Source: Vicinamibacterales bacterium (GTDB taxonomy: Bacteria; Acidobacteriota; Vicinamibacteria; Vicinamibacterales; UBA2999). Taken from it: a stretch of DNA of 64,000 nucleotides. A program made the position numbers and the translations under genes. The notes beneath the pieces were generated by a model. The model did not search any database. It saw only the letters and a program-made list of their open reading frames with translations, and was not told where the DNA came from. Shown here piece after piece: positions 3,892-31,136 of the stretch. Location of the stretch: the NCBI GenBank assembly GCA_041394685.1, contig JAWKHU010000038.1, forward strand, positions 130,087-194,086, given 5' to 3'. The first letter of the stretch is position 1. Each line of letters starts with the position of its first letter.

Positions 3892-4011
3892 GAACGCCCT
3901 GGATGGCAAGCGGCGTGCCGCCTGCGTCCGCTGCAAATCGGTCCACATCGCGACGCGGCAGCGGCCGCCGTGCCGCGCGCGGGATTCCGACTGGCCGCGT
4001 GCGGACACCGC

Positions 4012-5597
4012 TCAGCGGCAGTTGGCCTGATAGCGGCCAACCGCCGCCTGCAGGGGCCCCACCATCGCGGGGCGCTCACGCTGGGCGCGCGCCAGGAGCT
4101 CGCCCAGCCAGCGCACCGCCTCGTCGCACCGGCCGAGACCCGCCAGCGCGGCCGCGACGACGGTGCCGTCGGCGAGGTCGTGCGTGGTGTCGTACACGCT
4201 CCGGCCGAGCGTGAGGGCCCGGGCATAGTCGCGGCGATCGACGAGCGGCCCGGTGGCCAGGACCGATGCGAGCCGCGCGGCGATGCGGCCCTGGACGCGT
4301 CGGCCGCATGACCGCGCTCGAGGGCGGCGAGGGCCTCGGTGTGCCGGCCGAGTGCGGTGAGCGCTTCGACCTCACCAAGCCGCGCGTCCTCGTCGGCGGC
4401 GTCGAGTGCCAGGGCCTGCGCGAAGACGGCGCGGGCCTCGTCGTAGCGGCCCACGCGGCCGAGCTCGCGACCGAGCAGGTGCAGCGCCTCCGCGTCGCCG
4501 GGCGCCAGTTCCGCGAGATGCGTCAGGTGCCGGATGGCAGTGTCGTGCTCCGCGGCCTCCGATCGGAGGGCGGCCGCGTTGAAGAGCGCGGTTCGATGGT
4601 CGGGGTCGGCGGCCAGGACCGCATCGAACTGCTCCAGTGCACCTGTGCGGTCGCCGATGCGGCCGAGCGCGGTGCCGAGATTGACCCGCGCGATGAGATT
4701 GTCGGGTTCGGTCGCAAGCGCCCTGCGGAAGGCGGCCGCGGCCTCGTCGACCCGGCCGGCCGCGAACGCCACGCGACCGCGGACGATCGCGAGGCGAACA
4801 CCGCGCATGGTGTCGTCGAGGGAGTCGCGCAGGGGATCGGCAACCTTGACCCCCACGCTGCCCTGCCGGTCGAGCTCGGCCCGCGCCTCGTCGAGCCGGC
4901 CCAGCCCTCGATACGCCATGCCGAGCACGTAGTGCACGCGCGTGGCCGCGGGCACCTGCTGCAGTACGCGCGAGAACGCGTCAACGGCGCGCGCGAAGTC
5001 GCCGCGCGCCATGGCGACCTGTCCCACGCCGAATCGAGCGGCCGCCAGCTCCGGCTCGAGCGCGAGTGCCGCGTCGTAGGCCGCCTGGGCCTCGTCTCTC
5101 TGGTCCAGCGACAGATGCAGGTCGCCGAGGCGAACGAGCAGCGGCGCGTAGTCGGGCCGAATCGCGCGCGCGGCCGCGAAAGCCGCTTGCGCCTTCGCCG
5201 TGTCGTTCCGTTCCTGATGGAGGCAGCCCTGCAGGGAGGGCCAGCGGAAGTCGGCGGGGGCGAGCGCGCGCGCCGTGGCGTAGCTGGCCTCGGCGGCCTC
5301 CGTGAGCGCGTACGCGTGATAGGCCTGGGCCAGGTCGCCATGCGCATCGGCGCGGGTGGACGCCGCCGCACCATCCCGTTCGAGTGCCGCGACGGACTCC
5401 GCCAGGGCGCGGATGTGCTCCGCGACAGCAGGCTCGAGCGCATCGAGGCCGGCCGGAGGGACGACCACCGGCAACTGCCGGGACACCCGCGGCCCGGCAT
5501 CGGCCAGCGGTGTGACCGCGGCGCCACCCAGCAGCACGATCAGCGCGCCGACGCCGAGAGTGCTGACGGCCGCACGCCGATAGCGGGGTCTGTCCAT
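4012..5597 (-). CDS. TPR-repeat protein with N-terminal membrane anchor (one frame break near 4290 as sequenced)
   Basis: N-terminal TM is GVGALIVLLGGAAV, followed by a long run of TPR-like A/L/Y/G-rich repeats. After ...ALERGHAAD the main ORF turns into RS-rich nonsense. A plausible C-terminus (VYDTTHDLADGTVVAAALAGLGRCDEAVRWLGELL...QANCR) sits in ORF 4012..4197. Confidence 0.7.
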
Positions 5598-5606: not shown

Positions 5607-7457
5607 CTACCGCACGGCCGTTCCGGCGCCCTGCTGCAGGGTCGTATAGGCGCCTTCGCGCAGCCCCGTCCAACGCTCCGTCTCACCCGACGGCCACCGC
5701 ACCCGCACCTCGCGCACACCCGACGATTCCAGGCCCGCGAGCACGCGCGGGTCGTGCGCGGACAGGTAGCCGCCATCCGTGTGCACGCGACGCCGCAGGG
5801 CGCGCCCGTCCGAGCGCACGACGATGACCTCCGCTCCGAGCATGTCGCGGGCGGGCGTCCGTCCGGCCAGCCGCAGGCCCACCCAGCGGGACTGGCCTGG
5901 GGTGTCGTTGCGCAGCACCCGCGCCGGGCCGTTGCTGTTGAGCAGCACGATGTCGGTGTCGCCGTCGTTGTCGAGGTCGCCGAGCGCCATGCCGCGGCTC
6001 ACCTCCGCCACGCGGAACGCCGGGCCGGCCTCAGCGGACGCGTCACGAAAGCGGCCGCCCGTGTGGATGAAGAGCTGAGTGGGCTGCGCGAGCGGATAGG
6101 GATCGCGCGGGTCGGTGGTGAGGCGCAGCACGGCGCCGTTGGCGGCCACCAGGTCGAGCCACCCGTCGTTGTTCACATCGGCCCACAATGTCCCGAAGCC
6201 GGTGTAGCGCGTGCCGAGCCCAAGCCCGGCCTCCCGCGTCCGATCCTCGAACACCGTCTTGCCGAGGTTCACGTACAGCGTGTTGGTCTCGTCCATCAGG
6301 TGCGTGAGGAAGATGTCGGGCCGGCCGTCGCCATTGAAATCCCCGGAGTCCACGCCCATGCCGGCTTCCGCCTGCCCGTCCCGGTTGAGGGCCGTGCCGC
6401 TCAGCAGTGCCGCGTTCTCGAACGTGCCGTCGTGACGGTTCATCCAGAGCTGGTTCTCGTAGCCGTCGTTGGCCACGTAGAGGTCCAGCCAGCCATCGCC
6501 GTCGAAGTCGTCGGCCACCACGCCGAGGCCGGCGCCGAACGCGCGCGCGATGCCGGCCGACGCCGTGACGTCCTGAAAGGTCCCATCACCCTTGTTGCGA
6601 TAGAGGATGTCGGGCACCGGCGGAAAGGACTTCGGGCCGCAGTAGTCGCGGGCGCTCGTGGCGGCGTAGCAGGCAGGCGGTCGCGCGAGATCCACCTCGA
6701 CATAGTTGGTGACGAACAGGTCGAGCCAGCCGTCGCGGTCGTAGTCCACGAACGACGCGCTCGTGCCCCAGCGCCGATCGCCCGTCCCCGAACGCGCGGT
6801 GGCGTCCTCGAAGCGGCCGCCGCCACGGTTCATCCACAACTGGTTGGCGCCAAGGTTGGTGATGGCAGGTCCACGCGGCCGTCGTTGTCCACGTCGCCGG
6901 CGGCCACTCCCATCCCGTAGCCACGCGCCTCGATCCCGCTCGCCGCGGTCACGTCAGTGAAGGTCAGGCGGGCCGACCCAGGCGCGAGGTCGTTGCGGTA
7001 GAGCCGTCCGGACGGCGGCTGCGCGCCGGTCCACGGCGTCAGCGTCTTCGCCGCATCGTCGGACGGCCGCAAGGTCGTGCCCTGCACGAGGAAGAGATCG
7101 AGATCGCCGTCGTTGTCGAAGTCGAACAGCGCGGCGCCGGAGCCGACTATCTCGGGATAGAGGTAGTCGCCGGTGAGGCCGTTGTAGTGACGGAAACGGA
7201 TGCCGGCCGCAGAGGTGATGTCGGTAAAGGTGGCGGGGGCCGCAGATGGCGCAGATGACACAGAGGCCGCAGATTGCGCGGAACTCGCAGAAGCCGCAGA
7301 TGGCGCAGATGACGCAGAGGCCGCAGATTGCGCGGATGACACAGGGGACGCAGATGGCGCAGATGGCGCGAATGAGGCGAAGGGGTGGAGGGTGCGAGGG
7401 GGCCACGCCCGAAACGGCGAGCACGAGGGCGACGATTGGGAGGGGAGGGCGGTGCAT
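5607..7457 (-). CDS. CRTAC1-family FG-GAP/VCBS repeat protein with ASPIC/UnbV C-terminal domain (frame breaks near 6850 and near 7385-7420)
   Basis: Repeats include FDFDNDGDLDLF, GDVDNDGRVDL, VDYDRDGWLDLFVTNY, DDFDGDGWLDLYVANDG, GDFNGDGRPDIF and GDLDNDGDTDIV. The C-terminus is ...GAEVIVV..GGYLSAHDPRV..VRVRWPSG. The gene is split over ORFs 5607..6839 and 6830..7342. The signal peptide MHRPPLPIVALVLAVSG (ATG at 7457) is in a third frame. Confidence 0.75.
7242..7385. repeat. Tandem 9-mer array, 16 units (GCAGATGGC/GCAGATGAC/GCAGAGGCC family) with a 54-bp higher-order period
   Basis: Read directly: gcagatggc gcagatgac acagaggcc gcagattgc gcggaactc gcagaagcc, repeated, then decaying (gcgaatgag gcgaagggg). 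On the minus strand it translates as a Ser/Ala linker between the signal peptide and the mature CRTAC1 domain. Confidence 0.9.
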
Positions 7458-7497
7458 CGTGAGGCGGGACGCGTGCCGGGTGGTCCGGCGCGTCGCG

Positions 7498-8208
7498 TTA
7501 CGGTGGCGGGGGCCGGCGCGGCGGGGCGGCGCGGCCGTCCGGGGGTTCGTTTGACGGGGGCGGCGCGGGGCTGGGCGCGGTGGATGGCACACCGGGGCGT
7601 GCGCCTTCGGGGCGACCGTTGCTCAGGCTTTCGGGGCGGGGTTCGGACGACGCGGCCGACGGCGTGCGGTCGGCGGGCGTGGCGCCGCCATCACGACCGT
7701 TCGCACGATTCTCCTTGTCTTCCGCAGAATCGGCGGCGGCGTCTGGCAGGTTGGTGACGAGGCTGTCTGGTTCGAACGCAGCATTCTCCGCGGCACCGAC
7801 GATCCGCTCGAGTACGGACGCCGGCGTCGTGCCCGCCGGCACGTCACCCTTGGCCAGCACCAGGATCAGATCGATATCCGATGCGCCGCCGGCGCCCGAG
7901 CGCCGGCGGGCGACGTAGCCGGCCGCGTCGCCGAAGATGGCGGCCAGCGCTTCGGCTTCGGGGACGGCGTGCAGCCGCATCGACAGGGTGCGTGCGCCCA
8001 GCAGGTCGGCATTGATCACGGTGGTGCCGCCGGCGCGGGACCATTCCTGCAGCACGCGCGTCGCCGGGATGTCGTCGGCCACCAGTGTCACGCGGCCGGC
8101 GTCGAACGACACGGCGAGCTGGCGGGCGTCGGCGCCCATCGACCATCCGGCCAGGATCGCCAGGGCAAACCCCACCAGTCGCCACGCCGGCGTGCTGCGC
8201 CGCTTCAT
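7498..8208 (-). CDS. Hypothetical secreted protein with Pro-rich C-terminal tail
   Basis: Likely start is MKRRSTPAWRLVGFALAILAGWSMGADA (signal peptide). A structured N-domain is followed by a low-complexity P/S/A tail. GC3-rich codon usage. No family recognised. Confidence 0.5.
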   Translation of the reverse strand: MKRRSTPAWRLVGFALAILAGWSMGADARQLAVSFDAGRVTLVADDIPATRVLQEWSRAGGTTVINADLLGARTLSMRLHAVPEAEALAAIFGDAAGYVARRRSGAGGASDIDLILVLAKGDVPAGTTPASVLERIVGAAENAAFEPDSLVTNLPDAAADSAEDKENRANGRDGGATPADRTPSAASSEPRPESLSNGRPEGARPGVPSTAPSPAPPPSNEPPDGRAAPPRRPPPP

Positions 8209-8224: not shown

Positions 8225-9604
8225 CTACCGGTCCGCGGCCGCGGCCGGGCGGCCCGCCTCTTCGTGCAGCGGCATGCCACCCTGACACGTGGCCGCGTGC
8301 GCAGCGCGCTCCGCGACAAACCGCGCCAGCAGGTCGTTGCCGAGCTGGTTCAGATGGCAGCAGTCGTCGGCGTACACCGGCCTCGATTCCGTGTCGAACA
8401 GGTCCACCGCACTGGTGATGTCCACGCCCCTGGCGGCCAGCGCGGGCAGGCGTGCGAGCAGCCGCGGATACCCGGCGCGTGCGGCGTCGGCGTAGGGCGA
8501 CGCCGGATTGATCGCGACGCGGCGCTCCTCGTCACTGAACGGCTTGTGGGAGACGTACTGATTGGGCTGGATGACCTGCGCGGAGGGCACGCCTTCCGCG
8601 CAGAGCAGGTCGCGCACCTCGGCGGCCGCGCGTGCCCACAGCGAGACGGCGGCGTCCAGGTGGTCCGGGTCGTCCGCCGTGGCTCCGCGGCGCCAGGGCT
8701 CGAGGCGCAGGACGCCGTCCTGCGCACCGACATATTCGACCAGGGCGCGATTGGCCGCGGCGGCACTGCGTGCGGCCGCGTCGCGGCGCAGCCGGGCGAG
8801 AGCCAGACAGCGGCGGCTCGCGTCCGCGCCATCTGCGACTCGAAATCGCGATGCGCGCTGCCCGTCGCGCCGGGCGCGCACCACGAGTTCCAGCCGGTCG
8901 ATCAGCACGGCCTGCGCGTCGAGCAGGACTTCAGCGGCAGCAGCACCTGCGCTGGGGACGGACGGATCGATACCGCTCTGCACGTTGCCGGAGGCCAGCA
9001 CCACGTCGTTGAAGCCGTCCACCGTGACGGCGAGGATGCGCTGGCGCGCGCGCGCAGAGATAGGCGAGCACCGCCAGCGTCTGCGGCTGCTTGAACGCCC
9101 CTGCACGCCAGGTTGAGGATCTCGATGGGGCGCCCGCGCGGCGCCAGCTCAGCCGTGCAGCGAGCGCGGGTTCTCCTGGAGCATAGCCCACTGCGCCACC
9201 GACCCGCCGAGCACGGCGACGACAAACGTCTGCGCACCGGGCGCCGTCAGGTAGTCGGCCGTCGCGAAGAAGCCGAGGTTGTTGGCCCGTCGTGATGCCC
9301 ACTCCGGCGTCGCACCGTCGGTCGTCATGGCGTCGAGGCGCGAGCGGCCACCGCCTCCGCCACCGACTGCCCCGGCCGGCGGATGAAGCCGAGCACCGGA
9401 TGGAGCACCAGGCCCGGAGACGTCTCGGCGTCGGTCGCCTCACCGGCAACCGCGGCCAACGCGCCTGCCTGGCGCGCATCAAGACCCCGCCGTCGGGCCG
9501 CGCATACGCCCGAGGACGCCCGCCGCCTCGCACAGCAGCGCGATCGCAACCAGATTGACGGCGACACGACAGCCGCGACGCGAGGCACGCCTCACTGTTC
9601 TCAT
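8225..9604 (-). pseudogene. SGNH/GDSL-like hydrolase or acyltransferase-like membrane-anchored protein, fragmented over at least 4 frames as sequenced
   Basis: The largest piece (8225..9106) ends with a block-V-like DDCCHLNQLGNDLLA motif. Upstream pieces in other frames are NNLGFFATADYLTAPGAQTFVVAVLGGSVAQWAMLQENP, ELAPRGRPIEILNLA and the N-terminal TM VAVNLVAIALLCEAAGVLG. Confidence 0.4.
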
Positions 9605-10282
9605 GGGCAGCACACGCGGTGCGGTATACAGTCTGGAACCGCGTGTCCGACCACCAGAATACGGCCGACCGCCCGTGGCGCGCACGTCGGAGGCATGGGA
9701 CACCATCGGGCGGCTGCAGTTCGACTTCCTCGTGTCCCGAGGGCCTCAGGCCCGTCGCCGGCTGCTCGACGTGGTGCGGGTGCCTGCGGGGAGGCGTGCA
9801 CTTCGTCTCCTACCTCGCCGACGGCCACTACTTCGGCATGGACCGCAGCGAGGCACTGCTGGACGCGGGACGCGAGCACGAGCTGGCCGCCGAACGGCCG
9901 ATCGCCGCGTGACGCTGCTCTGCCGCGACGACTTCGCCTTCGGCGAGTTCGGCACGCTTCGACATGGCGCTGGCCCAGTCCGTCTTCACGCACCTTCGGA
10001 ACTCCATCCTTCGCTGTCTCGGAGATGCGGGCGGTGCTCGACGTGGACGGCCTCTTCTTCGCCACCTGGTTCGAGGACGCGGACGCTCGCACAAGACGAC
10101 GAGCATCACGCACGACCCGGGCGGCGTGACCACGTTCCCGGATCGGGATCCCTACCACTACGAGTTCTCCGTCTTCGAGGACCTCGCCCGCCGCGCCGGG
10201 CTCATCGTCGCGGACCTCGGCGCCTGGAACCACCCGCGCGCGCAACGGCTGATGGTGTTCCGGCGCCCGGAACTCCCGCTGA
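9603..10282 (+). CDS. Class I SAM-dependent methyltransferase (several frame breaks as sequenced; boundaries approximate)
   Basis: Pieces are SEAWDTIGRLQFDFLVSRG, GGVHFVSYLADGHYFGMDRSEALLDAGRE, FDMALAQSVFTHL and HDPGGVTTFPDRDPYHYEFSVFEDLARRAGL..AWNHPRAQRLMVFRRP. Confidence 0.55.
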
Positions 10283-11275
10283 TGCACGGCCCGTCGGCTC
10301 CCGCCCTCTCCGTCGTCGTTGTCGTGTTCGACATGGCGCGCGAGGCGCCGCGGACGCTCTTCACGCTGTCGCCGGCGTATCAGGGCCTGCCCGCCGACAC
10401 CTACGAGGTCATCGTCGTGGACAACGGCTCGTCGCCGCCGCTCGGGCGCGAGACCGCGGAGGCCGTCGCGGCAACGTGCGGTGCACGTGTACGTGGACGA
10501 CGCGGCACCGTCGCCTGCAGCCGCGCTGAACCTGGAAGCGTGCTGAACGCGCGGAGGGACTGATCAGGTTCATGGTGGACGGCGCGCGCATGCTGTCGCC
10601 GGGCGTTCTCGGCTACGCGCATCAGGCGGCCCGTGCCTATCGACGGCCGGTCGTGAGCACGCTGGGCTTTCACCTGGGCCACGAGCCCCAGGTGACCGCC
10701 ATGACAAGGGGCTACGACCAGGCCGTCGAGGACACCTTGCTCGACACCGTGGACTGGCGCGGCAACGGCTACGAGCTCTTCCGGATCTCGACGCCGGCAT
10801 CTCGTCCGGCCACGGCTGGTGGGGACCGCTCGCCGAGAGCAACTGCGTGTTCGTGACCCGCGACACCTTCGAGGCCCTCGGTGGCTTCGACGAGCGGTTC
10901 GACATGCCAGGCGGCGGGCTGGTGAACCTCGACTTCTACCGCCGCGCCTGCGAAGCTCCTGGGACCGAGCTGGTGGTCCTCCTCGGCGAGGGCTGCTTTC
11001 ACCAGTTCCACGGCGGCGCCATGACAGGACAGCGCATGGAAGACGTCGCCGCACGGTTCGCCACCCAGGACGCGCAGTACCGCGAGCTGCGTAGTGAACC
11101 GTACCGGCTGCCGCTGGTCCGCTGCGACTACATCGGTCACGCCCCGCCGGCGGCGCACGCCTCGCTGGCGGACGGCGTGGCCAGGTTCGAGGCGTTCCGG
11201 ACCGCCTCACCCGAAGACGCGCGGGCGTACGCCGCCGGGGCCACTTCCGCCCAACCGGCCGCAGCCGGCCACGGC
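10282..11275 (+). CDS. Family 2 glycosyltransferase (frame breaks near 10540 and 10850; may be fused to the following sulfotransferase)
   Basis: Pieces are LSVVVVVFDMAREAPRTLFTLSPAYQGLPADTYEVIVVDNGSSPPL, a mid piece GVLGYAHQAARAYRRPVVSTLGFHLG, then FVTRDTFEALGGFDERFDMPGGGLVNLDFYRRA (a DxD/ED-type GT2 core). Confidence 0.6.
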
Positions 11276-12004
11276 TCCTCAGCGCCAGGTCATCGTCGTC
11301 GGCATGCATCGCAGCGGCACGAGCATGCTGACCGGAAGCCTGCAGCAGGCGGGGCTGGTGCTCGGCGAGGTCGTCACCGAGGCCCCGCACAACGCCAAGG
11401 GCAACCGCGAGTATCCCGCCATCCTGCACATGCAGGAGGAGCTGCTCGTCGCGAGCGGTGGCTCGTGGGACCGGCCGCCAGCGGAGGTGCGCTGGGGAGT
11501 CGCGGCACCGCGCCGTGCGCGACCTCTTCATCGCGCGCTTCCGGACGAGCCGCTCTGGGGTTCAGGATCCGCGCACGCTGCTGACGCTCGAGGGGTGGCT
11601 CAGGCGCTGCCGTCCGCGGAGTTCGCCGGCATCTTCCGCCATCCGGCCCTGGTGGCGCGCTCCCTGCGCCGCCGCACTGGGCTCGACATGGACACGGGCC
11701 TCGAGCTCTGGCGCGTCTACAACACGCGGCTACTCGAGCTGCACCGCCGCCATGCGTTCCCGCTCATGGAGTTCACGACGACGCCGCGGAAGTTCGGCGG
11801 CAGATGGCGACGATGATCGCGCGGCTGGAGCTGCCGAACCGGCAGGCGCCGTCGTTCTTCGAGGACCGGTTGCGGACACGTCCCGCCGACGAGGCGCCGT
11901 TGCCGGACGCGGTGTCGAGGCTGTACGCGGAGCTGCGGGAGCGAGCGGGTACGCCCCGGCCGGCGCCCGATGAGCAGCCGGCCGGGAGTCGAACGGACGG
12001 TTAG
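11276..12004 (+). CDS. Sulfotransferase-family protein (frame breaks near 11520 and 11810; start uncertain)
   Basis: The 5'-PSB-type motif VIVVGMHRSGTSMLTGSL is followed by GNREYPAILHMQEELL, then FRHPALVARSLRRRTG..LELWRVYNTRLLELHRRHAFPLMEF. It is paralogous to the N-domain of 13859..15312. Confidence 0.55.
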
Positions 12005-13641
12005 CGCTGCGGCAGGCTGCGCTCGAGCGCCTCGAGCCGCATCTTCAGCGCGTCGAACTGCTGCTGCTGCTCGGTGAGCTGCCGCTGCAACTGCTCGATG
12101 TAGATGTGGGCCTTCTCCAGCTCGTTGAGCATGCCGGCGGCCTTGCGCCCGATGTTCCACGGCGCGTCCTCGGGTGTCGGCCCGACGGCCGGCAGGTAGC
12201 CGTTGCCCCACATCTCGGCCGCGTGATCCTCGATCGTGGGCATCGCGTAGTCCGGGTGGAACACACGGTCGCAGCCGTCCACGCCGCCGCCGCCGCCGTT
12301 GCCGTCGCTGCAGTTGCCACCGACGACCAGGTTGCCGCGGAGCGTGAGGTTGCCGCCGGTGTCCAGCGTGGCTTCCGTTGCGCCCGTGCCGCTCTTCGAG
12401 AACACGAGGGCCTCGCCGGCCGCTCGCATGCTCACGTTCCAGAAGCTGCTGTTGTTGCCGGCATCGAGCTGGAAGGCCACGTCCCCGTCGGAGTTCGCCA
12501 GCTTGAGGGCCGCGTTGCCGGTGCCGATGTTGCTCGCCGTGCCACGCACGTCGATCGGCGCTTGCGGGGTCGTCAGACCGAACCCGACGCGCCCCGTGGC
12601 GGAGATGTCCACGGCGCTCGTCGGCGCGCCCGGACGGACGCGGAACGGATAACGGTCACCGGCGGTGGAGTCGCGGACGAAGAAGTTGGCCTCGTTCCCG
12701 CCGATGTCCCATCGCTGCGCCGCAAAGCCGCCGGAGTTGTTCTGCTCCAGGCGCAGGGCGGGCGTGTTGCTGGTGTTGAAGTGGGCATCCAGCGCCGGCG
12801 AACTGGTGCGGAAACCGACGCGACCGGTGCTGTCCACGTACAGCGAACTGGTCGGGGAGTTGGCCTCCACGAGGAAGGGCGTCCGGCCGGCCGTCGAGTC
12901 CTCGACGGCGAAGTAGTTGGCGCCTCCGTTGGTCGTGTCGTTGATCACGATGCGCCAGTCGTTGGCCGGGAAGGTGCCGGTGGACGTGTCGTCGAAATGG
13001 ATGCGGAGGTTGTTCTCCCTCAGGCGGATCGAATCGGAGCCGAAGTTCTCCGGCACCACGCAGTCGACGCCCACGCAGGCAGCGTTGTAGACGTATAGGT
13101 TGTCGTTCGCGGTGAGGCTCGGCGAGTCGGTGCCGGCCAACGACGGCGGCACGCCGTCACCATCCGGGGCGGGAAGCGCCGTCTTCTCGTCGCTGCCCGG
13201 CTTCGGATACCGGCCGTTGAGCACGAACGCGTCGAGCGGCAGGCCGCCTACCGTCTCGGCATCGGCCGCCTTGAGCGCGTACGGCACGCTGGCCCAGAAG
13301 GAACGAGGGCCCTCGGGCGCGCCGTCCACCGAGATGCCCAGCCATCGAGCCTCGCCCTTGGTGAAGAGGTCCGAGGGCAGGCCCTCGGGCTGGGTGGCGC
13401 CGAGCAGGGTCGAGTACTGCCCGTTGGCGTCGAGCGCCAGCGCCTGGGTCTCACTCCAGATGGGGGCGCCGCCTTCCTTCTCGCTGTAGATCGCGAAGGT
13501 GATGGTGACGCCGCCAGCCAGCAGGTTGCCGCCGGCATCGCGGGCCACGCCCGAGGCGGGCACGACACGCGGAGGCGCCTGAGCAGACGTGGACTGCAGC
13601 CCCAGCAGCCCGATTCCGATGGCGATCAACAAGCCCTTCAT
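12001..13641 (-). CDS. Secreted tail-fibre-like repeat protein with C-terminal coiled coil
   Basis: Intact 546-aa ORF with a GGGAGGA RBS and signal peptide MKGLLIAIGIGLLGLQSTSAQA. It has repeated STGRVGFRTSSPA / ATGRVGFGLTTPQAPIDV beta-strand units typical of tail-fibre-domain proteins. The C-terminus is FHPDYAMPTIEDHAAEMWGNGYLPAV...LEKAHIYIEQLQRQL. Confidence 0.75.
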   Translation of the reverse strand: MKGLLIAIGIGLLGLQSTSAQAPPRVVPASGVARDAGGNLLAGGVTITFAIYSEKEGGAPIWSETQALALDANGQYSTLLGATQPEGLPSDLFTKGEARWLGISVDGAPEGPRSFWASVPYALKAADAETVGGLPLDAFVLNGRYPKPGSDEKTALPAPDGDGVPPSLAGTDSPSLTANDNLYVYNAACVGVDCVVPENFGSDSIRLRENNLRIHFDDTSTGTFPANDWRIVINDTTNGGANYFAVEDSTAGRTPFLVEANSPTSSLYVDSTGRVGFRTSSPALDAHFNTSNTPALRLEQNNSGGFAAQRWDIGGNEANFFVRDSTAGDRYPFRVRPGAPTSAVDISATGRVGFGLTTPQAPIDVRGTASNIGTGNAALKLANSDGDVAFQLDAGNNSSFWNVSMRAAGEALVFSKSGTGATEATLDTGGNLTLRGNLVVGGNCSDGNGGGGGVDGCDRVFHPDYAMPTIEDHAAEMWGNGYLPAVGPTPEDAPWNIGRKAAGMLNELEKAHIYIEQLQRQLTEQQQQFDALKMRLEALERSLPQR

Positions 13642-13858
13642 GCCAGACGTCCTCCCTCACCCGGACCGCGCACGTCCGTGCGCCGCCAGGTCACCCATCG
13701 CACCCGCGGACGAACGACCGTGATGGACGCCCGGACGGGTGCTGCTTCGGTCAGTATCGGCCATTCTCCGAGGAACTGTAGAGCTGTCGCGCGCCCGGCC
13801 GTTCATCGTGTGCAAACGCGGGGAACCGCGGGCGACACTACCAAGAGACGGGATTAAC

Positions 13859-15312
13859 ATGAGCGCGATGGCCGGCAATGCCCAGGGGCCGGAGTCCAGC
13901 CGCGCGCCGCTGACGGCACCCGTGTCGTCCACCGTGATCTGCGTGGTGGGCATGCACCGCAGCGGCACCTCGGTGGCCTCCCGCCTGTTGAACCTCGTCG
14001 GCGTGTTTCTCGGCGACCAGCGGTCGATGATGCGGCCCGCGGGCGACAATCCCACCGGGTTCTGGGAGCACGAGCCGATCATGGTCGTCAACGACCAGGT
14101 GCTCGAGCGATTCGGCGGGCGATGGGATGCGCCGCCCAGCCGGGCGCAGGATCCCGGGCTCGACGACCTGAAGCACCAGGCCCGCGAGCTCCTCGCCCGC
14201 GACTTCCACGCGGCTGCCCTGTGGGGCTTCAAGGATCCACGGACCGCCATCACCCTGCCGTTCTGGCAGGAGGTCATCGGGCCGATGCGCTACGTGGTCT
14301 GCCTCCGGAGCCCGGCCGCCGTCGTCGCATCGCTGGCCCGGCGCGACCGAATGCCCTCGGAGACCGCGGAACGCCTCTGGTTGCAGCACGTCCGCGGCTG
14401 CCTCGCCTACACGCGCCACCAGCCGCGCATGTTCCTCTACTACGACGACGTGCTCGACGACTGGAAGACGGAGCTCGGCCGGCTCGCCGCATTCGCCGGC
14501 GTACCCGACCGCGCCGACGACCCGCGCGTGCAGCGTGCCGTCAGCGGCTTCCTCGACCGCGAACTGGCGCACCACGATGGGTCCGCCGTGCTGCTGGCGG
14601 CAGACCGGCGCCTCTCGATGGCCACGACGGGCCTGTACCTGACCATTCGCGGGCTGGCGCCCCGCCACGCGCCCTCACCCACGGCCACGATCGACCACGC
14701 CGAGAGAGGCAGCGATCCCGACGACCTGCTGGACCTGCTGGCGACGCGCGCGCTCGACACCTTCGACGACGCCAGGGCGACCGCGGCCGACCGCGCGCGT
14801 CTGGCCGCGCAGGCGGACGCCCTGCAGGACGCGCTCCGCCAGATGCGGACGCGCACGGCGGAGCTGGATACGCGCCTCGCACGGCTCCAGGCGGACCGTG
14901 ACGCGATCGCAACCGAAGCCGGAGAGTGGCGGACCACGGCCGCGGCCGCGCAGGAGGCCGCCGCACGCCTCGAGGCCGAACGCGACCGCACGGCGGAGCA
15001 GTTGGCCGAGGCACACGCGTCGGCCGCCCGCCTCAGGGCGGAGCATGATGCGTTGATGGCGCGTGCGCGCAGCCTGGAGGACGGCCTTGCCGCGCTCGGC
15101 ACGTCCCTCGACGCCGTGACGACCGACCGTGACGGCCTGGCCGCGGCCCTGGTCCGAGCGGACGCCGAGTTGACCGAGATTCAGTCCAGCCGGGCGTGGA
15201 CGGCCGTCACCGCCGCGCGCACGGCCGTCGTCCGGCTCCTGCCGCGGGATCCCGACGGCGGCGGCAATACGACCGCGCCGTCGCGCGCCTGCCGGGACGT
15301 CCGCGGGCCTGA
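13859..15312 (+). CDS. Sulfotransferase domain fused to a long Ala/Arg-rich coiled-coil domain (frame break near 15235)
   Basis: N-domain motifs are VICVVGMHRSGTSVASRLL, FKDPRTAITLPFW and CLRSPAAVVASLARRD, followed by about 200 aa of heptad-like A/R/E/L sequence. The natural end ...GSRRRRQYDRAVARLPGRPRA-TGA (15310..15312) is in another frame. The ORF-track extension to 16090 is antisense read-through. Confidence 0.7.
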
Positions 15313-15325: not shown

Positions 15326-16746
15326 TCAGCGCACCATGCGGCGGATGACGCCGTCGCCCTTGTTGATCATGAGGATCTGATCGTCGAGCGCCGCGTTCAG
15401 CCGCAGGTCGGCGCGCGTGGCTGGCGTCTTGCCCTGCGCCGCGTTGGTCTCCTGAATCACCTGCAGGAACGTCCGGTCGCCGGCAGGCGTGCGCACGAGG
15501 ACGCGCCGAATGGGATCCTGGCCGCCTTCGGGCAAGTCGTCGGCGCTCACGTAGAACATCTCGCCGCTCGGGTTGTCGGTGAAGAGGACGCGGTTGGCGA
15601 CCTGCGGAATGGCCGTCCCGCGGTAGATCACCAGGCCGCATGCCGCCGACTGCGGCTGCAGCAGAGGGTCGAGCTGCCCGTACTCCGCGAACGGGAACGT
15701 CACCGCCGGATCGCCGCGGCGTCCCTCGGCCTCCACCGCCTGCCGGCCGACGAACTGTACGAGCCCTCCCAGACGTTCCAACCGAGGTTGCCGCCCTTCG
15801 GCACCAGCGTCACCTTCTCGACGATGTTCTGGCCGATGTCGGCGAGGAAGAGGTTTCGCGTCTTCGCGTCCCACGCGAAGCGCTGGCGTTGCGGATGCCG
15901 TAGGCATAGATTTCGGGAGGGCCCCGGCGCGGGCGACGAAGGGATTGTCCGACGGGATGCCGCACTGCGTCGCATGCCCGTTGGTCCCGAGCGGGTCGAT
16001 GCGGAACATCTTGCCGAACGCCGAGCCGAGGTTCTGCGCCATGTTGAACGGATCGCCGCCACTGCCGCCGTCGGCGATGGTGATGAGTAGGAGGCCCGCC
16101 TCGGTGCTTCCCGCCGCGGCCGTGGGATCGAACGCGAGGTGGCCGGCGTTGTGGTTGGCGAAGGGCTGCCGGATGCGGAAGAGCACGCGCGGCGGTCCGC
16201 CGTCGTAGGTGGCCGCGGACGGATCCTTCGCCGTCCACTCGAGGAGGACCGTGTCGTGGGTGGGCTTGTCGCCGCCGGCAGGCAGGAAGTCCGGTTCCGG
16301 CGTCATGTTCGACGTGTCGGTGAACGTGTAGAACCTGCCGTAGCCCGGAGCGCCGGCGCGCCCGAACTGCGGATGGAACGTGAAGCTCTGGAACCCGCGT
16401 TCGCGACCCGACGATTGCACGGGATGCCCCCACGCAGACGCGTTGGTGTCCACATATAGCGCCACCGAGGCGCCGTCGTAGCTGACGCTGTAGAGCGGTC
16501 CGCGCATGTCGTTGACGAAGAGGCGCCGGGTCGTAGTCTCGTCCACCAGGTTCATCATGCGCGCCGCGACACCGTCGATGTCGGGCAGCCGGGCGAACTC
16601 CGACACGCCGACGCGAATGACGTCCCGATCGGTCGCGATCGGTCCGGGGAACGGATCGTTGGTCTGCCCTGGCGCAGCGTGCCGGGCGCACGGACGAACG
16701 CGGCGGCGAGGAGCGCGGACAGGAGCCGGGTGAGTGCGATGGGCAT
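15326..16746 (-). pseudogene. PQQ-dependent sugar (glucose/sorbosone) dehydrogenase, secreted; four frame breaks as sequenced
   Basis: The signal peptide MPIALTRLLSALLAAAFVRA is in ORF 16555..16746. The body is in 15326..17077 (NDMRGPLYSV, FHPQF, RIRQPFANHNAGHLAFDP, ADGGSGGDPFNMAQN). The central part is in two other frames (EIYAYGIRNA; RFAWDAKTRNLFLADIGQNIVEKVTLVPKGGNLGWNVWEG). Confidence 0.7.
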
Positions 16747-16761
16747 GGGGGAGTTTAGTCT

Positions 16762-16844
16762 GGGGCGTGGGGCGGGGGCGTGGGGCGTGGGGCGTGGGAC
16801 CTGGGGCTTGGGGCTTGGGGCTTGGGGCTTGGGGCCTGGGACTT
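16762..16844 (+). repeat. Tandem G-rich 7-mer array (GGGGCGT then GGGGCTT), 12 G-tracts
   Basis: Read directly: GGGGCGT GGGGC GGGGGCGT GGGGCGT GGGGCGT GGGACCT GGGGCTT x4 GGGGCCT GGGACTT. It lies in the 161-bp divergent spacer between the dehydrogenase start (16746, minus) and the propeller-gene start (16908, plus). Confidence 0.9.
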
Positions 16845-16907
16845 GAGCTAAGCTCGGCGCTGGTTCGTCCGGGCGCGCGCCCCCCTCGCCTGCCTCTGGA
16901 GGTCCAC

Positions 16908-19889
16908 ATGTCTTGCCTTCTCCGGCGCCTGGCCGGCATCGTCTGGATGCTGGCGCTCGTTCCCCACCCGGCCCTCGCGCAGTACGCCGAGACCGCGCGA
17001 ACGCTGCCGGTCGCCGACGGGCTCGTGTACACCGGCACCCAGATCGGGTCGCGCCTCTTCATCGGCGGGACGTTCACGCACGTCGCGCCGCCAACCGGCG
17101 GCGCCGCGGTGTTCGACGACGCCGATCAGCCCGTTCCGGGTAACTGGCCCGTCATCGGCGGCACCATCTCGCGCATCATCCCGGACACACTCGGCGGGTG
17201 GGTGGCCGTGGGTTCGTTCACCACGGTGAACGGGCAGCCGCACGCGGGGCTCGTGCACGTGACGGGCGCCGGCGAGGTGGACCCGCGGTTCCGCATCGTG
17301 GCCGATGGAGGCATCTCGTCCGTGGCGCTGGCGCACGGACGCCTCTACCTTGCCGGGCCCTTCACCACCGTGAACGGCGCTCCGCGCCGCGGCCTGGCCG
17401 CGCTCGACGCCTCGTCGGGTGCGCTGTTGGCGTGGGGACAGGCCTTCCAGGCCTTCGACATCAGCTTCGTCGCCGCGCTGGTGACCTCGTCCACCGGCGT
17501 CTACGTGAGCCTGACGGGTGCGCCGGGCGGCGGAACCTGGGGGCTCGCGGCCAGTGACGGCCACGTGCTCTTCCACCTGCCCATCATCTACGGGGCCCTT
17601 GCGCCCACCTCGACGCGTCTCTACGCCGCCGGCTACGTCCCCGCCGTGCAGCAGAATCGCGTCGTCGTCCTCGATCCGCAGACGGGCGCCGTCGATCCCT
17701 CGTGGGTGTCGCCCGTCCGGTTCCAGACCATCAGTACTACCAGCGGCGACCGCACGTTCTTCTCCCGCATGATCCTCGACGGCGACACGCTCTACGTGGC
17801 GGGGGCGTTTCGGACCGCCGGGGCGAGCCGGCAACACCTGATGGCGCTGAGCGCGTCGAGCGGCGCGCTGCTGCCCTGGCAGCCGGACGCCGCGTTCAAT
17901 CCGAGCAACGGGGTGCGCGACATCGTCCTGCTGCCGTCGCAGGTCATCGCCGTACACGAGAGCATCGGGTTCCCGGGACCGCTGCACGACGTCACGACAT
18001 TCGATCGGGTGAGCGCCGCCGCGACCCCTCGGCTCCTGCCCGTCTTCGGCAACGTCGCCACCGTCGCCCCGGTGGCCGCCGGAGTCGTGGTCGGCGGCAG
18101 CTTCGGCGGGTTCGGCGGAGAGGCGCGCGCCCAGCTCGCGGCCATCGACCTGGACACCGGCCTGCTCGACGCGTGGGCCCAACCGGCCGGCTCGCCGGCC
18201 AGCGTGATCGTGCTCGCCACGGATGGCGCCGCGCTCTTCGCGTGCCGCGTCCGGGACGTGGGCGGCCTGCCGCAGCCGACGATCGACAAGCTCGATGCCG
18301 ACGACGGCCACGTCGTGGCATCGCTCGACCTCGGTGGGCCGCTGGCGACGGCGCTGCTGCAGATGCGGGCCGCGGGCGGCCGCCTCTACGTCTGGGGGCT
18401 CTTCGACAGCCTGGGCGGACAGAGCCGCACCGGGCTGGCGGCCATCGACATCGCGACGTGGACGGTCCTGCCCTGGGCGCCCGCCACGGACAACCGGGTC
18501 TTCGATCTCGACGTGGTGGGCAACACCGTCTACCTGGCAGGCCACTTCTCCACCATCGACGCCACGCCGCGGCCGGGCCTGGCCGCGATCGACGCAACGA
18601 CCGGCGCGCTCCTGCCGTGGAACCCCGACGCCGACACGGCGCGGTTCTCCGGCGTTCGCGTCCGTGCCGGCCGTGTCCTCGTGAGCGGGGACTTCCGCCG
18701 AATCTCGGCCGTGCGCCGACGAGGGTTTGCCGCGCTGGACCCGGTGACGGCGGACGCCGACGCGTGGAATCCCGACTCGCCACCAGGATTCCCACAGGGG
18801 ATCAACGGCTTCGCGCTGGATGCCGCAGGCATCCTCTACGCGATGGGCGGGTTCTCCACGATCGTCGGCGGTCAACCCTCGGTCGGGCTCTTCGCCCTGT
18901 CGTCCGAGACCGGCCTCCGGCTGCCATGGCAGCCGCCCGGTCCCCTCTCGCTGAGCCGCGCGTCGGCGCTCCCGAGCTGTCTGCTTCTCGTCAGCGTCTC
19001 CCGGGTCGAGACGCCAATCCTGAACAGCTACGCCTGCCTGCCACCGCTGCCGCCGCCCACGAACGTATCCGCCAGCCTCTCGGGCGCGACGGCAACGCTG
19101 TCGTGGACGCCACCAGCGGCGGATGTGACCGGGTACCGCATCGAGGTCGGGCGCGGCGCCGGGCAGCGCGACCTGGCCACCGTGGCCGTGGATGCGGGCA
19201 CGACATCCGCATCGGGCTCCCTGCCGGCCGGTTCGTACGTCGCACGCATCCGCGCGGTGCACGGCGAGGTCGCCAGCATGCCCTCACCCGACGTGAGCTT
19301 CGCGGTCGCGCCGCCGGATGTACCGGGCATCCCGCTGGATCTCTCCGTGGCCACCGAGGGTCAGCGCGTGCGGTTCTCGTGGCGCCCGCCGACGGTCGGC
19401 ACGCCCGCCGGGTACCTCCTGGAAGTCGGCGTGGCTCCGGGCCGCGCGGACTTCGCGTCGCTCACGCTCCCGCCGACGTCCACGTTCGAGGTGCCCACCG
19501 CACCAACCGGCATCTACTGGGCGCGTCTCCGCGCGATCAACGCAGCCGGCGCCAGCGGGCCGTCGAACGAAGTCGTGATCAACGTCGACGGCAGCGCCGC
19601 GCCCTGCTCGCTACCCCCACTCGCACCCGCCGGCCTGGCGGCCAGTGTCACCGCGCGCGTCGTCACCCTCACCTGGATACCGGCCACGACGGGCGCCGTC
19701 TCCAACGCGCAGCGCATCGTTGTCGGGTCGGCCTCGGGACTGGACAATCTCGGCGTGTTCGAAGTGGCGGGTCCGGCCACGACGTTCAGCGCACCGGCGC
19801 CGCCGGGCACGCACTTCGTTCGCGTCTACGGGTTCAACGCGTGCGGCGCAAGCCCGTTCAGCAACGAAGTGCAGGTGGTCGTCCCGTGA
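16908..19889 (+). CDS. Secreted beta-propeller repeat protein (DUF5122/delta-60-like repeats) with three C-terminal FN3 domains
   Basis: Intact ORF with likely start MSCLLRRLAGIVWMLALVPHPALAQ after a TGGAGG RBS. About 12 repeats of the pattern G.V.ALA..G.LY.GG.F..V.G..R.GLAA.D..TGALL.W. Three FN3 modules have the W..P...Y..EVG...G and G.Y.ARIRA.N..G.S.PS..V signatures. Confidence 0.8.
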   Translation: MSCLLRRLAGIVWMLALVPHPALAQYAETARTLPVADGLVYTGTQIGSRLFIGGTFTHVAPPTGGAAVFDDADQPVPGNWPVIGGTISRIIPDTLGGWVAVGSFTTVNGQPHAGLVHVTGAGEVDPRFRIVADGGISSVALAHGRLYLAGPFTTVNGAPRRGLAALDASSGALLAWGQAFQAFDISFVAALVTSSTGVYVSLTGAPGGGTWGLAASDGHVLFHLPIIYGALAPTSTRLYAAGYVPAVQQNRVVVLDPQTGAVDPSWVSPVRFQTISTTSGDRTFFSRMILDGDTLYVAGAFRTAGASRQHLMALSASSGALLPWQPDAAFNPSNGVRDIVLLPSQVIAVHESIGFPGPLHDVTTFDRVSAAATPRLLPVFGNVATVAPVAAGVVVGGSFGGFGGEARAQLAAIDLDTGLLDAWAQPAGSPASVIVLATDGAALFACRVRDVGGLPQPTIDKLDADDGHVVASLDLGGPLATALLQMRAAGGRLYVWGLFDSLGGQSRTGLAAIDIATWTVLPWAPATDNRVFDLDVVGNTVYLAGHFSTIDATPRPGLAAIDATTGALLPWNPDADTARFSGVRVRAGRVLVSGDFRRISAVRRRGFAALDPVTADADAWNPDSPPGFPQGINGFALDAAGILYAMGGFSTIVGGQPSVGLFALSSETGLRLPWQPPGPLSLSRASALPSCLLLVSVSRVETPILNSYACLPPLPPPTNVSASLSGATATLSWTPPAADVTGYRIEVGRGAGQRDLATVAVDAGTTSASGSLPAGSYVARIRAVHGEVASMPSPDVSFAVAPPDVPGIPLDLSVATEGQRVRFSWRPPTVGTPAGYLLEVGVAPGRADFASLTLPPTSTFEVPTAPTGIYWARLRAINAAGASGPSNEVVINVDGSAAPCSLPPLAPAGLAASVTARVVTLTWIPATTGAVSNAQRIVVGSASGLDNLGVFEVAGPATTFSAPAPPGTHFVRVYGFNACGASPFSNEVQVVVP

Positions 19890-20020
19890 CACGAAGGGCA
19901 CGAAGGGGAGAACACGAAGGGGGGCACGGAGGACACGAAGAGCACGAAGGGGACGAAGGGCACGGAGGGCACGGAGAGCACAGGGGGCGCGGAGGGCGCG
20001 GAGGGCTCGAGGGGATCGAG
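19890..20020 (+). repeat. Tandem purine-rich 9-mer array (CACGAAGGG family), about 14 units, decaying 3'-ward
   Basis: It starts on the nucleotide after the TGA stop (19887..19889): cacgaaggg cacgaaggg ... cacggagga cacgaagag cacgaaggg gacgaaggg cacggaggg cacggagag cacaggggg cgcggaggg cgcggaggg ctcgagggg atcgagcgt. Confidence 0.9.
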
Positions 20021-20040
20021 CGTGGAGAACGTTCGCGTGT

Positions 20041-20367
20041 CTACGGGGCGGGGGCGATGGAGTCTACGACGAGCGTGGCGCCCGAGGCGTCCAGCGAACC
20101 TGTGACCACGACGCGGACGCCCGCGTAGGCGGCGGGGGCGTCCTGGTCGGAGAGTTGGTACACCCGGTCATCCGTCACCAGGACGTACGCGGCGTCGTGC
20201 TCGTCGTGACAGGCTTTCGTGCAGGCGGCATCGGTCGGGCCCATGCGCATGCCCGCGTGCGAGGTCTCGCACATGGCGTCGGAGATGATCCCCGTGAAGG
20301 TCCGCGACTGGACCGGGGCGGCTCCGAGGGAACACAGGGCGACGATACCGACGAGCGCAACTCTCAT
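20041..20367 (-). CDS. Small secreted Cys/His-containing protein, function unknown
   Basis: Likely start is MRVALVGIVALCSLGAAPVQS (signal peptide). The mature part is FTGIISDAMCETSHAGMRMGPTDAACTKACHDEHDAAYVLV.... Confidence 0.5.
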   Translation of the reverse strand: MRVALVGIVALCSLGAAPVQSRTFTGIISDAMCETSHAGMRMGPTDAACTKACHDEHDAAYVLVTDDRVYQLSDQDAPAAYAGVRVVVTGSLDASGATLVVDSIAPAP

Positions 20368-20428
20368 GCAGCCTCCGCGCGGGACGGCGGAGCATACCAT
20401 GGCCCCGCCGTCCCCCTGGCGCGGATGC

Positions 20429-20935
20429 TTAGCGGCAGTCGCCGAGGACCTTGACGTCCTTGACGTCGATGCGTCGCGCGACGATGTCGAACTCGCGATC
20501 GTCGTCACCGCGAGCGCTGCCGGACAACCACGTGTTCGGCACGCGGATCTTCTCCTCCTCGCCGTCGAGGTCCAGTTCGATCTCGGTGTAGTCGCCGTCG
20601 CGATCGATCTCCACCTCGCCCGTCTCGAAGTCCTTCAGCTCGCCCTTGAGCTCGACGCGCCGGCCGACGTGCGCCGCCAGGCTGTCGTCGTCGTCAATCC
20701 AGTAGAAGACACGGGACGAGGCCGCGGGGACCGGCATGCCGGCCGCCGCCAGCATGATGTCCCTGCGCGTCCACGCCAGTGTGCGTGACGCGTCGGGTGT
20801 GCCAGCGGCCTCCTGCAGGACGCAGCCGCTGATGGTGATGTCATCGTCGTCCACGGTGATCGACGGCTGTGCGGCCGCCGGCGCGGCGAGCATTGCCAGG
20901 AGCGGGAGCGCGAATCCGAAGTGCAGTGCCCTCAT
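20429..20935 (-). CDS. Secreted acidic hypothetical protein
   Basis: 168-aa ORF with signal peptide MRALHFGFALPLLAMLAAPAAAQ, Asp/Glu-rich beta-like segments and GC3-rich codons. No family recognised. Confidence 0.55.
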   Translation of the reverse strand: MRALHFGFALPLLAMLAAPAAAQPSITVDDDDITISGCVLQEAAGTPDASRTLAWTRRDIMLAAAGMPVPAASSRVFYWIDDDDSLAAHVGRRVELKGELKDFETGEVEIDRDGDYTEIELDLDGEEEKIRVPNTWLSGSARGDDDREFDIVARRIDVKDVKVLGDCR

Positions 20936-20948
20936 GTGAGTCCTCCTG

Positions 20949-21191
20949 CTACGCTTTCAGGTCGTCTGGACCGTGCGCACGACGGTTCGCATCGCGTTCA
21001 CGCCACGCGCCCTTCTCGGGCGCGGCCGGCTCGTCGTTGGCGTTGTCCGTCAGGCTGCGATTCGGGTCGACCGACGCCGACTCGTCAATCGCGGCGTCGT
21101 CGATGTCGATGGGCTTGTCGGTACGTTCCGTTGCCGCATCTGGCGAGCCGCCGTTCGATGTTGTCCGCTCCGATGGGATATGCCGTTCCAT
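20949..21191 (-). CDS. Small acidic hypothetical protein (weak call)
   Basis: MERHIPSERTT...DIDDAAIDESASVDPN.... Third positions are mostly G/C in this frame, and it ends 14 nt upstream of the next same-strand gene. Confidence 0.35.
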   Translation of the reverse strand: MERHIPSERTTSNGGSPDAATERTDKPIDIDDAAIDESASVDPNRSLTDNANDEPAAPEKGAWRERDANRRAHGPDDLKA

Positions 21192-21322
21192 GGCTGATCC
21201 GGGAGCAAGTCCGGTGCCGCCCCTCCCCACCGATGAGCTGTCGCGACGACCGTATGGACGCGGTGCTGACGCGGCGTGATAATGAGCCGCTCTTCATCCG
21301 GCGCGAGTACAGGAGGACGGCA

Positions 21323-23260: not shown

Positions 23261-23380
23261 CACGGCACGACGACGACCCCGTCGAACTTCGTACGCACGC
23301 AGTTGTACCTGCGCTACTGGTTCGACCGGCACGCGCGCGGGCGCGAGGCCGCAACGTCCGGCCAGCCTCGCTGAGGCCGA

Positions 23381-31121: not shown

Positions 31122-31136
31122 CACGACGCGCTCGCG

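Follow-up and report, generated by a model that had tools for sequence, protein, structure and literature searches.

A cell-encoded tail-fibre-like protein among glycan-tailoring genes in an acidobacterium: a candidate strain-variable surface locus

Tail-fibre-like proteins encoded by the cell have been characterised, as far as we found, only in the predator Bdellovibrio. The available part of the report on the mosaic adhesive trimer (MAT) fibres of Bdellovibrio bacteriovorus describes proteins with a conserved N-terminus and exchangeable C-terminal tips, with S74 and non-S74 members, one of which binds surface glycans (PMC10769870). Here we analyse a window of 64,000 nucleotides, by which we mean the whole stretch taken from contig JAWKHU010000038.1 of a Vicinamibacterales (Acidobacteriota) metagenome-assembled genome (MAG), a soil or sludge acidobacterium. 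An intact gene for a secreted tail-fibre-like protein of 546 aa (12001..13641, minus strand) lies there among genes for an SGNH-fold enzyme, a methyltransferase, a glycosyltransferase fused to a sulfotransferase (GT2-ST) and a second sulfotransferase that bears a coiled coil (STCC). The locus is a variant of two known themes, cell-encoded tail-fibre-like adhesins and surface-glycan tailoring islands, and comparison with its relatives suggests that the fibre tip and the enzymes may together make up a variable cell-surface code.

By analogy, the MAT family appears to be the closest characterised counterpart of our fibre. Both comprise cell-encoded tail-fibre-like proteins with S74 and non-S74 members, a conserved N-terminus and exchangeable tips, and a weak fold match connects the window fibre to the beta-helix of Bd3182 (8ojn, E = 6e-3). 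The window fibre is, however, flanked by glycan-tailoring enzymes, of which the available part of the MAT report makes no mention (PMC10769870). It also differs in coming from a non-predatory acidobacterium, in its length of 546 aa against about 1000 and in its C-terminal helical module. Against the MAT N-terminal model NF053851 the window fibre scores 15.8 bits (E = 0.009), well short of the cut-off of 60, and hence is not a member of that family; the family to which it does belong is far larger.

Two other systems are similar in arrangement. P22-type phages carry tail fibre or tailspike genes with adjacent seroconversion (O-antigen-modifying) gtr/oac loci, and in both cases a gene for a glycan-recognising fibre would stand beside genes altering the surface glycan and be inherited with them as a unit. 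Unlike the phage loci, that of the window is chromosomal, has no phage genes and is conserved with FG-GAP and TPR genes, and its chemistry would be sulfation and methylation, not glucosylation or acetylation by GtrABC/Oac. Pilin alleles of Pseudomonas aeruginosa carry allele-specific accessory or modification genes (pilA-tfpO and related), and there, as here, a surface-filament gene and a downstream modification gene vary together as allelic cassettes, although the protein family, the secretion route and the enzymes are all unrelated and a modification of the fibre is in our case only hypothetical.

The gene order of the window recurs in relatives. A metagenome contig (L001, with a duplicate, L002), whose fibre is 72% identical to that of the window, has all five genes intact and in the same order: a 336-aa protein (an N-terminally incomplete call), a 230-aa methyltransferase, a 563-aa GT2-Sulfotransfer_3 protein, the fibre and a 475-aa STCC. 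Loci L005, L006 and L007, with fibres 47-50% identical to ours, carry an S8 subtilase, u453, STCC on the opposite strand and the fibre, and then, again on the opposite strand, a 520-aa sulfotransferase (ST520) and a Methyltransf_24 protein (MT24), followed by u256, FG-GAP/ASPIC and TPR genes. Compared with these, TPR, FG-GAP and u256 of the window lie to one side of the cluster and S8 and u453 to the other, 11 kb farther off. Identity to L007 amounts to 73-80% for the flanking genes and only to 45-53% for u256, the fibre and STCC, while the methyltransferase gene and GT2-ST are swapped for non-orthologous genes. One more STCC-bearing fibre locus, L140, has a downstream sulfotransferase-methyltransferase pair. 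The co-occurrence of fibre and sulfotransferase genes in related genomes, on which the original prediction proposed to be judged, was thus found as synteny in L001/L002, L005-L007 and L140.

The exchange itself can be followed by comparing L008 with L007. Over 6318 bp, which take in S8, u453, STCC and the fibre gene as far as about codon 346, their identity is 99.87%, and then similarity ends. Beyond this point L008 has a tip (type A) which is 92% identical to that of L001 and 79% to that of the window, and a GT2-ST-type gene follows; the tip of L007 (type B) shares 28% identity with type A and has ST520 and MT24 downstream of it. Type B occurs in L140 as well, together with an ST520 orthologue. 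Both cassettes encode sulfation and methylation, and do so via non-orthologous genes. As the near-identity ends inside the fibre gene, with both the tip and the downstream genes differing beyond, the C-terminal third of the fibre and the downstream tailoring enzymes are exchanged as one block. The breakpoint corresponds to about residue 346 of the window fibre, and its position within the fibre gene leads to a testable hypothesis, in which a surface fibre would be tied to the sulfation of bacterial glycans, a modification seldom documented.

The fibre gene was assessed by codon-position GC, a structure model and profile and fold searches. It is a single open frame with uniform GC at third codon positions (GC3, 0.88-0.98), its product is 100% identical to 'MAG: hypothetical protein R2712_10235 [Vicinamibacterales bacterium]', and the features predicted for it were all located. 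The N-terminus, MKGLLIAIGIGLLGLQSTSAQA, resembles a Sec signal when read by eye; GRVGF occurs twice (12811-12825 and 12580-12594); a Gly-rich loop bracketed by Cys, GGNCSDGNGGGGGVDGC, takes residues 441-457; and a long C-terminal helix, residues 497-542, is confident in the AlphaFold monomer (mean pLDDT 80.8). According to this model the signal peptide would be followed by a beta-sandwich (about 22-120), a disordered S/T/P-rich linker (about 120-180), a beta-rich shaft with the two GRVGF motifs (180-440), the Gly-rich loop and a helical or coiled-coil module (456-542). The label 'tail-fibre-like' seems justified because residues 260-434 match PHROG 9942 'tail fiber protein' (E = 1.8e-7) and because a viral structure library (BFVD) returned 86 matches at E <= 1e-3 with low TM-scores, the majority of them to tail-fibre-like proteins of cyanophages and S74-chaperone proteins.

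Profile searches with the fibre found no Pfam domain and no significant NCBIfam family, and the fold search of the PDB gave nothing at E <= 1e-3, the best matches, T4 gp34 and Bd3182, being both weak. The C-terminal Peptidase_S74 domain (PF13884) has no match in the window fibre; some homologues possess it in place of the window-type C-terminus, so that the family has S74 and non-S74 members, and its alignment is mosaic, with a conserved N-terminus and a variable tip. A prophage remnant, which the original prediction had also discounted, is ruled out. The flanks (HypF, FtsX permease, TPR, FG-GAP, GSDH, beta-propeller/fn3, S9 and S8 peptidases, PhoD and the histidine operon) contain no phage genes, a tblastn search of 50,697 phage records with the fibre gave a single weak match (27% identity, E = 2e-4), and relatives are chromosomal in many phyla.

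At a GC content of about 71% raw lists of open reading frames (ORFs) in the window are full of spurious frames, and genes were therefore called from codon-position GC and intact orthologues. GT2-ST (10264..12004, plus strand; VVDNGS at 10414-10431, GMHRSGTS at 11301-11324) is convergent with the fibre gene and overlaps it by a few bases, and STCC (13859..15310, plus strand, start codon approximate; GMHRSGTS at 13949-13972) is divergent from it, so the flanking of the fibre by two sulfotransferases in these orientations was predicted correctly. GMHRSGTS, the 5'-phosphosulfate-binding loop, does not vary among the aligned STCC sequences. The two sulfotransferase domains share about 29-34% identity, and in a sequence search their PDB relatives were only cytosolic aryl sulfotransferases, at marginal E values of about 0.01-0.05. 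The divergent intergenic region between fibre and STCC (13642..13858) is presumed to be a shared promoter region; scans for promoter and terminator consensus around the fibre gene found none, and no sigma-70-type consensus, such scans being uninformative for Acidobacteria. The GT2 and the first sulfotransferase had been listed as separate genes. Both are present, but they form one fused gene, since the intact L001 orthologue, 67% identical, is a single GT2-Sulfotransfer_3 protein of 563 aa. That orthologue exceeds the Pfam cut-offs for Sulfotransfer_3 (32.7 against 27) and for GT2 (PF00535, 31.7 against 23.3), whereas the GT2 fragment of the window scores only 14.3 because of frame breaks.

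The predicted methyltransferase dependent on S-adenosylmethionine (SAM) was borne out through its L001 orthologue: the window gene (9604..10278, plus strand, start approximate) is, after frame restoration, 71% identical to the intact 230-aa protein, which scores 42.1 against a cut-off of 30 for Methyltransf_12, and would encode a class I enzyme of the Methyltransf_12/25/11 type. The SGNH-like gene likewise stood. It occupies 8225..9588 on the minus strand and would encode a membrane-anchored SGNH/GDSL-fold enzyme of about 450 aa, of esterase or O-acyltransferase type, in which blocks I (GGS, 9194-9211), III (DGFND, 9005-9019) and V (DDCCH, 8354-8368) are all kept. Members of its family, which has no name, are about 440 aa long, and in them GGS, GFND and DxCCH are invariant or nearly so. 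Its sequence gave only marginal matches against the PDB, and the assignment was settled by fold: the model of a homologue, P0122 (pLDDT 92.7), has 16 PDB matches at E <= 1e-3, to GDSL, acetyl-xylan and carbohydrate esterases, with target TM-scores of 0.6-0.7. As an N-terminal membrane helix is preceded by basic residues, the catalytic domain of this enzyme is probably periplasmic. GT2-ST, the methyltransferase and STCC begin directly at their catalytic domains and hence have no signal peptides.

As for the substrate, the original prediction had left a choice between the fibre and its glycan receptor. Relatives of the sulfotransferase domain form the N-terminal part of enzymes of 1000-1400 aa with GT4/GT1, two GT2, WsaF or WbsX domains. 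Because these relatives are fused to polysaccharide glycosyltransferases, and the sulfotransferase of GT2-ST to a GT2, the sequences favour a glycan substrate over the fibre protein; the fibre half of the proposal is weakened, as three of the enzymes are without signal peptides and the fibre is Sec-exported.

In STCC an N-terminal sulfotransferase domain is joined through a coiled coil, variable in length and poorly conserved, to a conserved basic tail at the C-terminus. The coiled coil had been anticipated at about 200 aa; it is there, but measures about 150-170 aa. Such an architecture, with a capping-type catalytic domain ahead of coiled coil and tail, recalls the coiled-coil chain terminators of ABC-transporter-dependent O-polysaccharide synthesis, WbdD (PMC3482155) and those of WbbB type (PMC11231755), which combine a capping domain with a coiled-coil spacer and a membrane-associating C-terminus; the fusion of relatives of the sulfotransferase domain to polymerising glycosyltransferases adds to the likeness. 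The catalytic domain is here a sulfotransferase and not a kinase/methyltransferase or Kdo transferase, and none of the ten papers listed by a literature search for this combination mentions a sulfotransferase. A further difference is that no polymerase or Wzm/Wzt gene lies near the window cluster, Wzm/Wzt being present only in L003, a locus of different organisation. We regard STCC as an architectural analogue only, in which membrane binding and a ruler function may be supposed.

Clusters for sulfated surface polysaccharides offer one more comparison. In the available parts of the reports on synechan of Synechocystis and on sulfated capsules of marine Vibrio and Cobetia, sulfotransferases that use 3'-phosphoadenosine-5'-phosphosulfate are encoded with glycosyltransferases within polysaccharide biosynthesis clusters for a surface glycan (PMC13125312, PMC11641403, PMC11766843). 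The window cluster differs from what these parts describe in consisting of tailoring enzymes and the fibre only, without export or polymerisation genes.

From this analysis we suggest that the locus is a strain-variable cell-surface locus in which the fibre tip is matched to the chemistry of the displayed glycan, and we rate the chances of this reading as about even. The fibre would be exported by the Sec route and would probably be trimeric, with its conserved N-terminal domain probably anchored at the cell surface and the C-terminal third forming the variable distal part. In the cytoplasm, GT2-ST would add a sugar and sulfate it, the SAM methyltransferase would be another glycan-tailoring member of the set around the fibre gene, and STCC would bring a second sulfotransferase on a coiled-coil spacer whose basic tail probably binds the membrane. 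The substrate of these cytoplasmic enzymes would most likely be a polysaccharide, lipid-linked or growing, on the cytoplasmic side of the inner membrane and not the fibre polypeptide, and the membrane-anchored SGNH esterase or acyltransferase, probably periplasmic, would act on the glycan after export. The tip and the enzymes are inherited and swapped together, as a single cassette, and a match between the tip and the glycan of the same cell is therefore most likely. The tip would probably bind that glycan or be anchored on it, by comparison with phage tail fibres and the Bdellovibrio MAT fibres. A bolder form of the idea, to which we give a low probability, is a matched 'serotype cassette', where the specificity of a self-encoded fibre lectin switches together with the cell's own sulfated and methylated glycan. 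If true, it would amount to a code for kin recognition, self-adhesion or self-protection, resting on a large uncharacterised family with FG-GAP/ASPIC and TPR partners.

A number of points weigh against a tip matched to the glycan. Only two cassette types were seen, and their co-variation could be mere physical linkage. In locus L139 u256 and FG-GAP come immediately after a type-A tip, and the enzymes and STCC are both absent; L003 has differently organised polysaccharide genes (Wzm/Wzt, Bac_transf, GT1, GT2) with no sulfotransferase. A sulfotransferase of this kind stands within 10 kb of the fibre in about 10 of 80 genome loci (about 12%), and, in reverse, 48 of the 50 metagenome loci with a relative of the sulfotransferase domain have no fibre nearby, the 2 exceptions being near-orthologues. 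An obligatory partnership of fibre and sulfotransferase is ruled out by these two counts and by L139, and of the dedicated pathway in the original prediction the association holds, tip and enzymes being swapped as a block, while the word 'dedicated' has to be given up for 'lineage-specific'. Beside the cluster we found no gene for an initiating transferase, a flippase, a Wzm/Wzt transporter, a polymerase or an O-oligosaccharyltransferase. The fibre model is that of a monomer (predicted TM-score 0.49), and STCC scores weakly against Sulfotransfer_3 (PF13469; 25.1 bits in the window and 22.4 in L001, cut-off 27) and passes Sulfotransfer_1 (23.3 against 22) over a short stretch only. Finally, the enzyme genes of the window contain about 25 frame breaks, and these, if real, would make the enzymes inactive here.

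Another reading of the same cluster is that the fibre itself is the substrate, a glycoprotein whose sulfated and methylated glycan is built by the neighbouring enzymes and then transferred to it, in the manner of S-layer glycoproteins or of pilin alleles that come with modification genes of their own. The enzymes are packed tightly, divergently or convergently, around the fibre gene, the tip is swapped along with them, the fibre has its disordered S/T/P-rich linker and, as read from the sequence, N-x-S/T sites in the swapped region, and some relatives of the sulfotransferases are fused to WsaF-type domains, which are known from S-layer glycan synthesis. We nevertheless consider it rather unlikely: no oligosaccharyltransferase gene was found near the cluster, the linker is not part of the swapped segment and does not differ between L007 and L008, although their enzymes do, L139 has the same tip without enzymes, and cytoplasmic enzymes would have to serve a Sec-exported fibre. 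We also think it improbable that there is no direct functional link at all, and that fibre and glycan genes merely share a recombination-prone, diversifying surface-antigen locus, with a breakpoint inside the fibre gene only since its conserved core offers homology for recombination. The scarcity of sulfotransferases at most loci of the fibre family, that of fibres near most sulfotransferase relatives and the enzyme-free L139 agree with such an explanation, as does the place of the breakpoint, just past the most conserved block of the family, NEANFFVRD...PFRIRPGAP. It does not account for an association in 6 of the 8 independent loci of this clade, for its sporadic recurrence in unrelated phyla (Arenicella, Rhodobacterales, Saprospiraceae, Rhizobiaceae), or for two non-orthologous cassettes keeping the same chemistry of sulfation and methylation.

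The third alternative concerns the frame breaks, and according to it the enzyme genes are truly decayed pseudogenes on the way to the enzyme-free state of L139, with only the fibre still functional. We counted the breaks by frameshift-aware protein-to-DNA alignment, which places them to about 10 nt, and found about 10 in the SGNH gene, 7 in the methyltransferase gene, 7 in GT2-ST (10471, 10541, 10792, 11246, 11496, 11603, 11776), one each in STCC, the FG-GAP gene and the TPR gene, and none in the fibre, S8 and u453 genes. The break of STCC, at about 15246, produces an artefactual read-through ORF of 783 aa to 16090. The 3.75 kb between 8.2 and 12.0 kb contain about 24 breaks, a density of about 6.4 per kb, while elsewhere it is about 1 per kb (P ~1e-10). 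The fibre escapes them, the probability of no break in its swapped 0.6-kb part at the hot-spot rate being 0.02. This uneven distribution, together with the dispensability of the enzymes in L139, speaks for decay. Homopolymer context of the breaks, at the above precision, gave no clear pattern.

Frame switches elsewhere in the window, as parsed by a Viterbi procedure on codon-position GC, also occur within the histidine operon (36959-41952; hisI, G, D, C, B, H), where the Pfam domains of HisI and HisG match end to end across the junctions. As this operon and ordinary genes switch frame within genes, the assembly carries roughly one frame-breaking indel per kb, and apparent 'pseudogenes' of this MAG call for caution. 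Once restored, the enzyme frames are free of in-frame stops, although neutral decay at ordinary substitution-to-indel ratios predicts 3.6-22 (P(0) <= 0.03); their GC3 of 0.86-0.91 compares with 0.92 for the fibre; no catalytic motif has been lost; identity to L001 is 67-71%, close to the 72-73% of the fibre; and the seven events in GT2-ST sum exactly as four +1 and three -1. Because the histidine operon is broken too, and because open frames, GC3, motifs and identity to L001 are kept, we judge consensus indel errors to be the quite probable origin of the breaks and true decay of the enzymes to be doubtful. A possible reason for the local excess is that the coverage of a polymorphic cassette was low or came from mixed strains. 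The original prediction had noted frame breaks in the enzyme genes and none in the fibre, and this is so; the decay about which it cautioned is probably an assembly artefact. Intragenic frame switches are observed also at 15327-16625, 19885-20926 and 31999-36571.

The fibre belongs to a large cellular, non-phage family, with more than 5,000 database matches and at least 589 genome loci in Acidobacteriota, Alpha- and Gammaproteobacteria and other phyla, yet it is functionally uncharacterised and has a model in neither Pfam nor NCBIfam. We surveyed the genes within 6 kb on either side of the fibre gene at 84 loci across phyla (L009-L088 among them). FG-GAP/UnbV_ASPIC proteins were found at 43 of them, a small secreted protein of about 156 aa directly upstream at 34, Sel1/TPR proteins at 24, and GT2 and/or sulfotransferase genes at 23. 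Since the FG-GAP and TPR/Sel1 proteins are its commoner neighbours, the fibre with these partners is the basic unit, in the acidobacterial order fibre, u256, FG-GAP, TPR, and it looks like a conserved, uncharacterised surface module; the glycan enzymes are a frequent, lineage-specific insert, which is not obligatory. These general partners, and the STN-like u256 of the acidobacterial loci, lie in the window just outside 8225-15312 and had been missed in the original prediction. Cultured members of the family, namely Maricaulis maris DSM 4734, Mameliella alba and Sulfitobacter sabulilitoris HSMS-29, allow experiments, and the last of them has a weak sulfotransferase match directly downstream of its fibre gene.

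The general partners are all on the minus strand of the window. u256 (7466..8200), a small secreted protein with a weak region similar to a secretin N-terminal domain (STN/N0), is a conserved neighbour in acidobacterial relatives and evolves fast, being 45% identical to that of L007. It is followed by the FG-GAP/UnbV_ASPIC (CRTAC1-like) protein (5610..7327), with its frame break at 6864, and the TPR-repeat protein (4015..5528), with its break at 4297, which comes after FG-GAP as in L005 and L007. On the other side the alpha/beta-hydrolase-like u453 (26118-27461) and the subtilase S8 (27479-29197), also on the minus strand, are intact and 75-80% identical to those of L007. About 11 kb of unrelated genes (15327-26117) separate STCC from u453 and S8, which adjoin STCC in L007 and L008; they encode a pyrroloquinoline quinone sugar dehydrogenase, a DUF5122 beta-propeller/fn3 protein, DUF5818, an S9 peptidase, a haem-oxygenase-like protein and PhoD, and represent an insertion or rearrangement in this lineage. 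Of the signatures of a mobile island, we found no tRNA, no Rfam family and no convincing flanking repeats.

Several features of the wider family deserve mention. At least two fibre copies are present in 21 of 88 loci, and same-strand tandem arrays reach 15 paralogues in Thalassococcus profundi WRAS1 (L045, 480-21035) and 7 in Primorskyibacter sp. 2E233 (L027, 2671-12307). The fibre gene adjoins prepilin-like and prepilin-peptidase-like genes at 12 loci of Rhodobacterales. The conserved locus in L005, L006 and L007 is bordered (about 18300-21600, 1-5000) by genes of kinds that conflict or defence systems typically contain, namely caspase-like Peptidase_C14 with nSTAND NTPase genes, and TIR/TPR and SIR2-like ones.

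Farther along the window, a second glycan-related block (31999-36571, minus strand) encodes a secreted CBM96 and fn3-repeat protein with a 30-nt tandem repeat (35690-35947) and, after it, a GlcNAc-type glycosyltransferase (PF11397) and an HtrL_YibB-like region, with several frame switches. The 1.7 kb at 30256-31998, between coding regions, have no coherent coding frame in the codon-position-GC parse and may be a heavily frame-broken coding sequence. Tandem arrays with a period of 9 nt share the unit CGCAGATGR at 7238-7369, 41821-41946 and 42062-42147, the last in reverse-complement orientation about 120 bp from the second. Further short-period arrays are found at 19890-20014 (9 nt) and 16761-16840 (7 nt, TGGGGCG), and all arrays are situated at gene ends or in intergenic regions.

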